Shown: positions 59,401-64,000, counted from the first letter of the stretch. The stretch is DNA of 64,000 nt from Escherichia coli O157:H7 (GCF_013167455.1 NZ_CP038328.1); one strand, 5' to 3'. Numbers: made by a program.

Positions 59401-62400
59401 GATGCTGACAGATAAGCAAATCGCCGATTTCCAGAAACATTATCAGACTGAAGCGGAGCGTTTTCATATTCTACCACCGGGGATTTATCCTGATCGTAAA
59501 TATAGCCAGCAGCCAGCTAATAGCCGTGAAATCTTCCGTAAGAAGAATGGAATAACCGAACAACAATATTTATTGTTGCAGGTCGGTTCAGACTTCACGC
59601 GTAAAGGTGTCGATCGTTCCATTGAAGCACTTGCTTCGTTACCGGATTCGCTGCGCCACAACACATTGCTATATGTTGTTGGACAGGATAAACCGCGAAA
59701 ATTTGAGGCGCTGGCAGAAAAACGCGGCGTGCGCAGTAATGTTCACTTCTTCTCGGGGCGCAACGATGTCTCGGAATTAATGGCGGCGGCGGATTTATTA
59801 CTGCATCCTGCCTACCAGGAAGCAGCGGGAATTGTGCTACTGGAAGCGATTACTGCAGGATTACCGGTACTAACAACAGCCGTTTGTGGCTATGCGCATT
59901 ATATTGTCGACGCCAATTGCGGCGAGGCTATTGCTGAGCCATTCCGCCAGGAAACATTGAATGAGATTTTACGCAAAGCGTTAACGCAATCTTCATTGCG
60001 CCAGGCCTGGGCGGAAAATGCGCGACATTATGCTGATACACAAGATTTATACAGTCTGCCAGAGAAAGCGGCGGATATCATAACGGGTGGTCTGGATGGT
60101 TGAACTTAAAGAGCCGTTTGCCACGTTATGGCGCGGTAAAGATCCTTTTGAGGAAGTTAAAACCTTGCAGGGTGAGGTTTTTCGTGAACTGGAAACTCGC
60201 CGCACTCTGAGATTTGAAATGGCGGGCAAAAGCTATTTTCTCAAATGGCATCGCGGCACGACCCTGAAAGAGATAATCAAAAATTTACTCTCATTGCGGA
60301 TGCCAGTATTAGGCGCAGACCGCGAATGGAATGCGATTCATCGACTGCGGGATGTCGGCGTTGATACTATGTATGGGGTGGCATTTGGCGAAAAAGGCAT
60401 GAATCCGCTGACCAGAACTTCATTTATTATTACCGAAGATCTGACACCAACCATAAGTCTTGAAGATTACTGTGCTGACTGGGCGACTAACCCTCCAGAT
60501 GTTCGCGTAAAGCGTATGCTTATTAAGCGTGTCGCGACGATGGTGCACGATATGCATGCTGCGGGCATTAACCACCGTGACTGTTATATCTGTCATTTCC
60601 TGCTGCACTTGCCTTTTTCCGGTAAGGAAGAGGAGTTAAAAATTTCGGTAATTGACCTGCACCGGGCGCAGCTTCGCACGCGCGTTCCACGTCGTTGGCG
60701 GGATAAAGATCTTATTGGGCTTTATTTTTCTTCGATGAATATCGGCCTGACTCAGCGGGATATCTGGCGGTTTATGAAAGTGTATTTTGCCGCCCCGCTT
60801 AAAGACATTCTCAAGCAGGAACAAGGACTGCTGTCGCAAGCAGAAGCAAAAGCCACAAAAATCAGGGAAAGAACGATTCGAAAATCGTTGTAACCCGTAA
60901 CTTATTTTTGCCAAAATTTTGGATACAGAATAAATATGTCTCAACTCAATGATAGTGACATCATCCTTTTTGAGTATAATTTTCATTATCAAAATATAAG
61001 ATCTAAAAATACTCTTGATATAGCATTTGGTATTGACAGAAATTTTCTTTTTGGATGTGGTGTAGCCATCGCATCTATTCTATTAAACAATAGAGAAATC
61101 TCTTGTGAATTTCATGTTTTCACAGATTATATCAGTGATAAAGACAAATTATATTTTTCTGATTTAGCAAAACAATATAATTCAAGAATTAATATTTATG
61201 TTATCAATTGTGATAAGCTGAAGTCATTACCAAGCACGAAAAACTGGACTTACGCAACATATTTTCGATTTATAATTGCAGATTATTTCTATCATAAACA
61301 TGAAAAAATACTATATCTTGATGCAGATATTGCTTGCAAGGGTAGTATTAAAGAACTCTTAGATTATCAATTTTCTACTAATGAAATTGCCGCAGTTGTA
61401 GCTGAAAGAGATGTTGAATGGTGGCAAAATCGAGCCTCGGTATTAACTACACCACAGTTAGCTTCTGGATATTTCAATGCTGGTTTTTTACTGATAAATA
61501 TTGATGAGTGGAATCTAAATAACATTTCGTCAAAAGCTATTGAAATGTTGCGTGACCCAGATTGGGTAAGTAAAATCACCCACCTTGATCAAGATGTACT
61601 GAATGTATTATTGAATGGTAAAGTGAAGTTTATTTCGGAGAAATATAATACCCGATATAGTATTAACTATGAATTAAAAGACAAAGTTGATAATCCAGTC
61701 AATGATGACACCGTGTTTATACACTATGTGGGACCTACAAAACCTTGGCATGAGTGGGCTGACTATCCGGTGTCACGTAGTTTTTTGATCGCCAAAGCAG
61801 CTTCTCCGTGGAGTAAAGAAGATTTACTTAAACCTGTAAATAGCAATCAGTATCGGTATTGTGCAAAACATAAATTTAAACAAAAGCATTATATGGCAGG
61901 CATTTTTAATTATTTAAAGTATTATAAAGAAAAATGCTTCTAAAGATTTAAGGTTAAAATAATTCATTATGATATATAATAAAACGATAAATGGGGTGAA
62001 AGTTTTCATAAAAGATAATGATCCCTTTTATGAGCAAGTTCTAAATGACTTTTTAACTTGCAGGGTTAAAACATTAAAAGTTTTTCGTTCTATTGATGAT
62101 ACTAAAGTCATTCTTATTGACACTGCTCGTGGACCTCTTGTACTTAAAGTTTATGCGCCAAAGCATAAAATGACCGAACGTTTCTTAAAATCTTGCATAA
62201 AAAAAGATTATTATGAAAATTTAATTTATCAAACCGATCGGGTACGTGGTGAAGGCATCCAATCAATTAATGACTATTTTTTGCTAGCTGAACGTAAAAC
62301 ATTAAATTTCGCTCATTATTATATTATGCTCATTGAGTATATTGAAGGTGTCGGGTTAAATGAGTATTTGGAAATTTCTGAAGATCTGAAGGATCAATTA

Positions 62401-64000
62401 TCAGAATCGATAAAAGAGTTGCATCAGCATGGAATGGTGTCTGGCGATCCTCATAAGGGAAATTTTATAGTATCCGAAAAAGGTTTAAGACTAATTGACC
62501 TTTCAGGTAAAAAAACAACCGCTGTTTTAAAAGCAAAAGATCGCATTGATCTTGAACGGCACTATAATATAAAAAATGAATTGAAAGACTTTGGCTATAC
62601 ATATCTTATATTCAAAAAGAAAATTAAAAAAGTAATCAGGGATGTAAAAGTCAAACTAGGATTGAAGAGCAAATAATGATTATAATGAAGGGTAATTAAA
62701 TTGGATTTTAAACATCTTACTCAATTTAAAGATATAATTGAACTGGACAAGCGCCCCGTTAAACTTGATGAACGGGAAACGTTTAATGTCTCATGGGGTA
62801 TTGATGAGAACTACCAGGTTGGGGCTGCGATTTCAATTGCTTCAATTCTTGAAAATAATAAACAAAACAAATTTACCTTTCACATAATCGCTGATTACTT
62901 AGACAAAGAGTATATTGAATTATTATCACAATTAGCAACGAAGTATCAAACAGTAATTAAATTATATCATATTGATTCTGAGCCATTGAAGGCGCTACCT
63001 CAATCAAATATCTGGCCAGTATCTATTTATTATCGTTTGCTTTCATTTGATTATTTTTCTGCGCGATTGGATTCATTATTATATCTTGATGCTGATATCG
63101 TCTGTAAGGGTTCATTGAACGAGTTAATAGCATTAGAGTTTAAAGATGAATATGGGGCAGTGGTAATTGATGTAGATGCTATGCAAAGTAAAAGCGCTGA
63201 GCGTTTGTGTAATGAGGATTTTAACGGTAGCTATTTTAACTCTGGTGTAATGTATATTAATTTACGGGAATGGTTAAAACAAAGATTAACGGAAAAATTC
63301 TTTGATCTATTATCAGATGAGTCAATTATAAAAAAATTAAAGTACCCGGATCAAGATATTTTAAACTTAATGTTTCTACATCATGCTAAAATATTACCGA
63401 GAAAATATAATTGTATTTATACTATAAAGTCAGAATTTGAAGAAAAAAATAGTGAATATTACACCCGGTTTATTAATGATGACACTGTCTTCATACATTA
63501 TACTGGTATAACTAAGCCATGGCATGATTGGGCGAACTACGCCTCTGCAGATTATTTTCGTAATATTTATAATATATCACCATGGAGAAATATACCTTAT
63601 AAAAAAGCTGTTAAAAAACATGAGTACAAAGAAAAATATAAACACTTGCTTTACCAGAAAAAATTTCTCGATGGTGTTTTTACAGCAATTAAATATAATG
63701 TTATGAAAGGTTAATATACGAGATGGTTGATAAAATAATATTTACGGTTACTCCTATTTTTTCAATTCCTCCTCGCGGAGCGGCTGCTGTTGAAACGTGG
63801 ATGTATCAGGTTGCTCAGCGTACCAATTTTCCAAATCGTATTGTTTGTATCAAAAATCCAGGATACTCAAATTACACCTTTGTTAATGATAATTGTAGTA
63901 TTCATAGGGTTGGATTCAGTCGCATATATAAGCGGTTATTTCAAAAATGGACAAGACTTGATCCTCTTCCATATTCACAGAGAATATTGAATATTGCACA

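Follow-up and report, generated by a model that had tools for sequence, protein, structure and literature searches.

Gene content of the 3' end of the window

The window, by which we mean the whole stretch of 64,000 nucleotides of Escherichia coli O157:H7 DNA that was analysed (GCF_013167455.1, NZ_CP038328.1), opens within the LEE (3' end of espB, cesD2, escF, escG, espF), in agreement with the LEE-positive background that a first-pass annotation had assigned to it. At its other end the list of open reading frames (ORFs) for the 64-kb window holds a closely packed plus-strand run of waaQ, waaG, waaP, a GT8 gene, the waaY kinase gene, a second GT8 gene and the start of a GT4 gene. The waaQ gene (57924-58982, +) encodes heptosyltransferase III, a protein of 352 aa that scores 714 bits with the NCBIfam RfaQ model, above the curated cut-off. 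It is followed by waaG (58979-60103, +), encoding the GT4 glucosyltransferase I of 374 aa and annotated as waaG in the identical O157:H7 locus, and by waaP (60096-60893, +), encoding the heptose I kinase of 265 aa (NCBIfam RfaP, 480 bits, also above the curated cut-off); the waaP ORF opens at 60087 and the annotated start is 60096.

The first type-specific gene is waaI (60936-61943, +; 'waaO' in PGAP annotation), with its start codon at 60936. Its 335-aa product is assigned from Pfam, NCBIfam and published sequence arms of strain F653, and its role, that of a GT8 alpha-1,3-galactosyltransferase, from PMC9927288, where Kaniuk et al. (2004) are cited. Next come waaY (61969-62676, +), encoding the heptose II kinase of 235 aa, and waaJ (62701-63714, +), encoding a GT8 protein of 337 aa. 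The latter gene has a TTG start with the ribosome-binding site GAAGGG 8 nt 5' of it, and is named from Pfam, from the F653 waaJ arms and from the name given to the exact sequence in public sources. The last gene, waaD, starts with an ATG at 63723 and is interrupted by the window end 278 nt in (63723-64000, +), so that 92 of the 380 codons of this GT4 UDP-glucose:(glucosyl)LPS alpha-1,2-glucosyltransferase gene are in view; waaL lies beyond the window. The succession of waaP, a GT8 transferase, a kinase, a second GT8 transferase and a further glycosyltransferase start, which the first-pass annotation had read from the sequence, was exact according to the ORFs, Pfam and NCBIfam, coordinates included.

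Family searches support each of these names. WaaI matches Glyco_transf_8 (PF01501) with an E value of 1.9e-73 together with the GT8 C-terminal domain PF08437, and NCBIfam NF011718 with 620 bits, while WaaJ matches the same two Pfam domains (PF01501, E 7.3e-63; PF08437). A DxD motif is present in the translations of both, as 'YLDADIACKG' and 'YLDADIVCKG', and both match the solved structures 3tzt and LgtC 1g9r, the match being distant for WaaJ. All the criteria tested identify WaaI and WaaJ as members of glycosyltransferase family 8. Likewise, the product of the ORF at 61969 matches Pfam WaaY (PF06176) with an E value of 3.4e-93 and 312 bits, and the NCBIfam RfaY model NF007684 over its full length (389.7 bits; cut-off 248), which identifies it as WaaY, the heptose II kinase of the LPS core. 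The 92-aa WaaD fragment covers positions 1-92 when aligned with NF012028, the WaaK/WaaD-type subfamily model of NCBIfam, which has 380 positions, and is identical to the start of a 380-aa O157:H7 gene (locus L001:10788-11930); full-length WaaD from the O157:H7 genome matches Glycos_transf_1 of the GT4 type (Pfam, E 6.8e-35).

From 60936 to 64000 (3065 bases) the sequence agrees at every base with several chromosomes of E. coli O157:H7 (100% identity). One of these identical genomes carries waaQ-waaG-waaP-GT8-rfaY-GT8-GT4, followed by rfaL-rfaC-rfaF-rfaD on the opposite strand. Because the segment is identical throughout to annotated O157:H7 genes, we take the waaI, waaY, waaJ and waaD ORFs to be real genes and not chance ORFs, and from the identical genomes we infer that the waa locus is complete in the source strain.

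The leader of waaQ contains a JUMPstart element (57836-57874, +; Rfam RF01707, scoring 55.2 bits where the gathering score is 35), and within it an exact ops site, GGCGGTAGCGTG (57863-57874), which precedes the waaQ start by 50 nt. Given both elements in this position, the whole waa operon is predicted to depend on RfaH for read-through. Scans of 57400-64000 with promoter and terminator consensus sequences gave counts no higher than the shuffled expectation, and thus no evidence of internal transcription units.

Cassette boundary and comparison with other core types

Comparator loci of types R1, R2, R4 and K-12, each typed by primers, were compared with the window in gene order and in protein identity. 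As far as the stop codon of waaP, the window is near-identical to R1 and R4, with 98.2-98.6% nucleotide identity across waaA-waaQGP, against about 83% with K-12 and R2. The same division is seen in the proteins, where WaaQ is 99% identical to its R1 and R4 counterparts and 73% to those of K-12 and R2, WaaG 99.5% and 88-90%, respectively, and the waaQGP block of R2 and K-12 as a whole differs from that of the window at 73-90% protein identity. Megablast alignments to R1 and to R4 each run as far as 60893, where the stop codon of waaP lies, and there the G+C content drops from 0.47-0.48 (waaQ, waaG, waaP) to 0.31 (waaI, waaY, waaJ). Since the similarity to R1 and R4 stops and the G+C content falls at this point, the segment from 60936 is taken to open with the first gene of a low-G+C, type-specific cassette, such as has been described for all waa loci (PMC8715443).

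Beyond waaP the comparator loci continue with S-B-O-J(R)-Y-Z-U in K-12, GT8-B-O-J(R)-Y-Z-K in R2, O-T-Y-W-V-L in R1 and O-T-Y-W-X-L in R4. The K-12 order with waaS and waaB after waaP, against which the first-pass annotation had set the window, was thus found in the K-12 locus itself. The window's order, waaP-waaI-waaY-waaJ-waaD, occurs in none of the K-12, R2, R1 and R4 comparator loci, and there is no waaS, waaB, waaT, waaW or waaZ in the window cassette, of which waaD is seen as its first 92 codons.

The encoded enzymes are similarly distant from those of the other types. WaaI shares 54-58% protein identity with WaaO of R1, R2, R4 and K-12, WaaY 52-58% with its counterparts in the same four types, and WaaJ 40-44% with WaaJ(R) or WaaT; full-length R3 WaaD is 57% identical to R2 WaaK and has nothing comparable in R1, R4 or K-12. 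R2 and K-12 supply the nearest non-R3 relatives of WaaI (WaaO, 57-58%) and WaaY (55-58%), whereas WaaJ is equally far, at 42-44%, from R2 WaaJ(R) and from R1 and R4 WaaT. The R2 and K-12 loci furthermore resemble R3 in having waaL on the opposite strand, within the hldD operon, and R2 WaaL is 52% identical to R3 WaaL. They differ from R3, however, in that R3 is without waaS, waaB and waaZ and has its kinase gene between the two GT8 genes, whereas in R2 and K-12 it comes after them. In contrast to their shared proximal block, the distal cassettes of R1 and R4 are unrelated in order, with three GT8 genes and a GT2 (R1 waaV) or GT25 (R4 waaX) gene; their waaL is on the same strand, unlike that of R3, and their enzymes are 37-54% identical to the R3 enzymes. 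With the R3 locus itself (prototype F653; O157:H7 EDL933 and Sakai; waaQGPIYJD with hldD-waaFCL) the gene order, the families and the cassette boundary are the same, and no difference was found.

The core locus of Salmonella enterica, waaQGPBIJYZK, directs the same Glc-Gal-Glc outer-core backbone, with WaaI as a galactosyltransferase, and carries waaB and waaZ; WaaK there adds GlcNAc. The NCBIfam models that match WaaI and WaaD bear the names of Salmonella-type enzymes. As distinct from Salmonella WaaK, R3 WaaD adds glucose (PMC9927288).

Assignment to core type R3

Typing primers for the five core types (R1, R2, R3, R4 and K-12), taken from PMC13293308, were applied to the window by in-silico PCR. 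The R3 pair has exact sites at 62785-62807 (+) for R3-R, in waaJ, and at 63786-63805 (-) for R3-F, in waaD, giving a product of 1021 bp, the size stated there. None of the other seven primers, for R1, R2, R4 and K-12, has a site in the window within 2 mismatches. The same primers class the comparator loci correctly, as K-12 (MG1655 and an ST131-like strain), R2 (EBJ001), R4 (STLEFF_47) and R1 (Nissle 1917 and two others), and O157:H7 as R3.

The R3 prototype F653 was compared through about 600 nt of published primer sequence (PMC9927288) as a sample of its locus. Its six recombineering arms of 80 nt, which border waaG, waaI and waaJ as expected, show 0, 0, 0, 1, 1 and 1 mismatches with the window; of the two for the waaI deletion, one has 0 and the other 1. 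The two F653 waaD primers that fall within the window are exact, with waaD-Ni at 63705-63741. Of the short check primers from the same paper, three of six are exact in the window; waaJ-down-VR, waaI-up-VF and waaG-down-VR have no site either in the window or across the O157 locus of 19 kb, and may be misprinted or aimed at other sequence. Primers for deletion of waaI in O157:H7 ATCC 43895 (PMC11394844) are exact at 60936 and 61943.

Among 5426 complete E. coli genomes the 3065-base segment is present at full length and at least 95% identity in 1363 (25.1%), always in single copy and always on the chromosome, while the remaining genomes give partial matches covering 9-56% of it at 60-80% identity. 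From the wide separation of these two identity classes it follows that the segment is a discrete allele class at a locus that is polymorphic, and its frequency agrees with that of type R3 among 4,549 genomes, 25.79% (PMC13293308). For the distal part of the O157:H7 locus, 2109 bases comprising the rest of waaD and waaL, full-length matches were likewise found in 1363 genomes, at one place in each. These equal counts, a comparison of numbers and not of genome lists, argue that the cassette moves as a unit.

The counts bear on a hybrid locus, in which R3-like waaI-waaY-waaJ would be joined, beyond the window, to the distal waaD and waaL of another type. The distal part of waaD lies outside the window, hybrids of K-12 and R2 exist (PMC13293308), and the waaQGP block common to R1 and R4 points to past recombination at the block edges. 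However, the proximal and distal pieces each occur at full length in exactly 1363 genomes, O157:H7 strains with 100% identity to the window bear the full locus, and the passages of PMC13293308 consulted mention no R3 hybrid; we therefore consider a hybrid very improbable. A similarly slight chance attaches to a locus that is non-canonical beyond the window in this strain, for example with waaD disrupted or waaL exchanged, so that the core would be modified or the O antigen attached at another site; nothing in the 3 kb within the window points to such a locus. That the cassette is of type R1, R4, R2 or K-12 and looks like R3 through common GT8 and kinase motifs is less probable still and can be dismissed, for although all five types have GT8 transferases and WaaY, and every type bears the same PGAP product name 'waaO ... 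3-alpha-galactosyltransferase', the gene order differs in K-12, R2, R1 and R4, identity to their enzymes is 35-58%, and their typing primers find no site within 2 mismatches.

Accordingly, the segment is almost certainly the known R3-type waaI-waaY-waaJ-waaD outer-core cassette of E. coli O157:H7. None of the gene order, the primers, the protein identities, the F653 arms and the genome survey argues against this assignment. The R3 core type that the first-pass annotation had proposed is borne out by the 1021-bp R3 product, by 100% identity to O157:H7 and by F653 arms with 0-1 mismatch per 80 nt. The alignment of the proteins to typed cores, which it had put forward as the test of that proposal, returned at most 58% identity for R1, R2, R4 and K-12; best matches to R1, R4 or K-12 enzymes, which would have spoken against R3, were not obtained. 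Its association of R3 with EHEC and LEE-positive strains also stands, R3 having been reported for 97.9% of EHEC (PMC13293308) and, among 42 LEE-positive strains, for 30 (PMC8715443).

The R3 core locus of O157:H7 is already known and is ordinary for such strains. The value of the assignment lies in correct annotation and typing: it confirms an O157:H7-like background and leaves LPS biology unchanged, and the core type serves as a typing marker that follows EHEC and LEE-positive lineages. Core type also sets the O-antigen attachment site, and is recognised by some phages and predatory amoebae.

The genome survey also returned 13 plasmid places that weakly match the 5' end of waaD. The one inspected, on NZ_JCANKX010000003.1 (L010:4001-4642), is a shortened pseudogene resembling waaD that shares 72% identity with the 5' end of waaD and adjoins IS1, in a plasmid sugar-modifying cluster (acetyltransferase, glycosyltransferases, epimerase). 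As a pseudogene in an unrelated cluster, it was rejected as part of the R3 system.

Core assembly, gene names and strain-level differences

A scheme for R3 core assembly can be proposed from these genes. According to it, transcription would start at the waaQ promoter and pass through the JUMPstart/ops leader, with RfaH enabling RNA polymerase to continue elongation across the distal, A+T-rich genes. WaaG would place the first outer-core glucose on heptose II, WaaI, as a retaining GT8 enzyme, would add an alpha-1,3-galactose, and WaaJ (GT8) an alpha-1,2-glucose on that galactose, to which the O antigen would be ligated. On the glucose contributed by WaaJ, WaaD (GT4) would then place a side branch of alpha-1,2-glucose. 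By family assignment, heptose I would be phosphorylated by WaaP and heptose II by WaaY. These sugar and linkage specificities draw on the literature, while gene content, order, families and the R3 call come from the present analysis of sequence. The glucose added by WaaJ is reportedly the site of O-antigen ligation, and the GlcNAc branch of R3 is said to need a plasmid gene, wabB, on pO157; if so, the chromosomal locus alone would not specify the complete R3 core.

PMC9927288, which refers to Kaniuk et al. (2004, J Biol Chem 279:31237), has WaaI adding galactose at the second outer-core position, WaaJ glucose at the third, and WaaD a glucose branch on the third-position residue. The R3 chemistry, a Glc-Gal-Glc backbone with Glc and GlcNAc branches, is known for O157:H7 and F653 (Kaniuk et al., 2004, via PMC9927288 and PMC11394844).

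Several names in current use for these genes are misleading. The R3 glycosyltransferase gene waaD is distinct from the waaD that is an old name for rfaD/hldD, the heptose epimerase gene. A 2025 typing paper (PMC13293308) calls its R3 primer target 'waaD' ADP-L-glycero-D-mannoheptose 6-epimerase; in this it confuses R3 waaD with rfaD/hldD, since the primer sits in the GT4 gene at 63786-63805. RefSeq/PGAP records mostly label R3 WaaD 'lipopolysaccharide N-acetylglucosaminyltransferase', after the Salmonella/R2 WaaK-type model, and only some use 'UDP-glucose--(glucosyl)LPS alpha-1,2-glucosyltransferase'; experiments cited in PMC9927288 make it a glucosyltransferase. Likewise, the PGAP label 'waaO: lipopolysaccharide 3-alpha-galactosyltransferase' is given to the HexII transferase of all five types (60936-61943 in the window; comparator loci L003, L004, L005 and L009), although the HexII position holds glucose in K-12 and galactose in R3 (PMC9927288). 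With one label for Gal- and Glc-adding enzymes, the NCBIfam equivalog NF011718 thus does not separate donor specificity. The 90%-identity protein cluster of WaaI (335 aa) also lists RfaP members of 265 aa, probably as a clustering artefact, perhaps through fused or mis-called products spanning waaP and waaI.

Against the O157:H7 strain ECP19-598 the window is collinear from 52936 to 64000, with a single mismatch, a substitution at 60210 within waaP. Collinearity over the whole window proved wrong further upstream, where an additional EspF repeat and a further copy of ISEc8 give rise to the offsets. The espF gene (1453-2340, +) encodes 295 aa in the window and 248 aa in ECP19-598, and the 141-bp alignment offset there corresponds to one extra 47-aa proline-rich repeat in the window. 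At about 34894-37256 the window has some 2.4 kb that are absent at that site in ECP19-598; of these, 35551-37256 match an ISEc8 (IS66-family) copy located elsewhere in that genome, and the extra DNA is probably a strain-specific ISEc8 insertion in the integrated element adjoining yicC.
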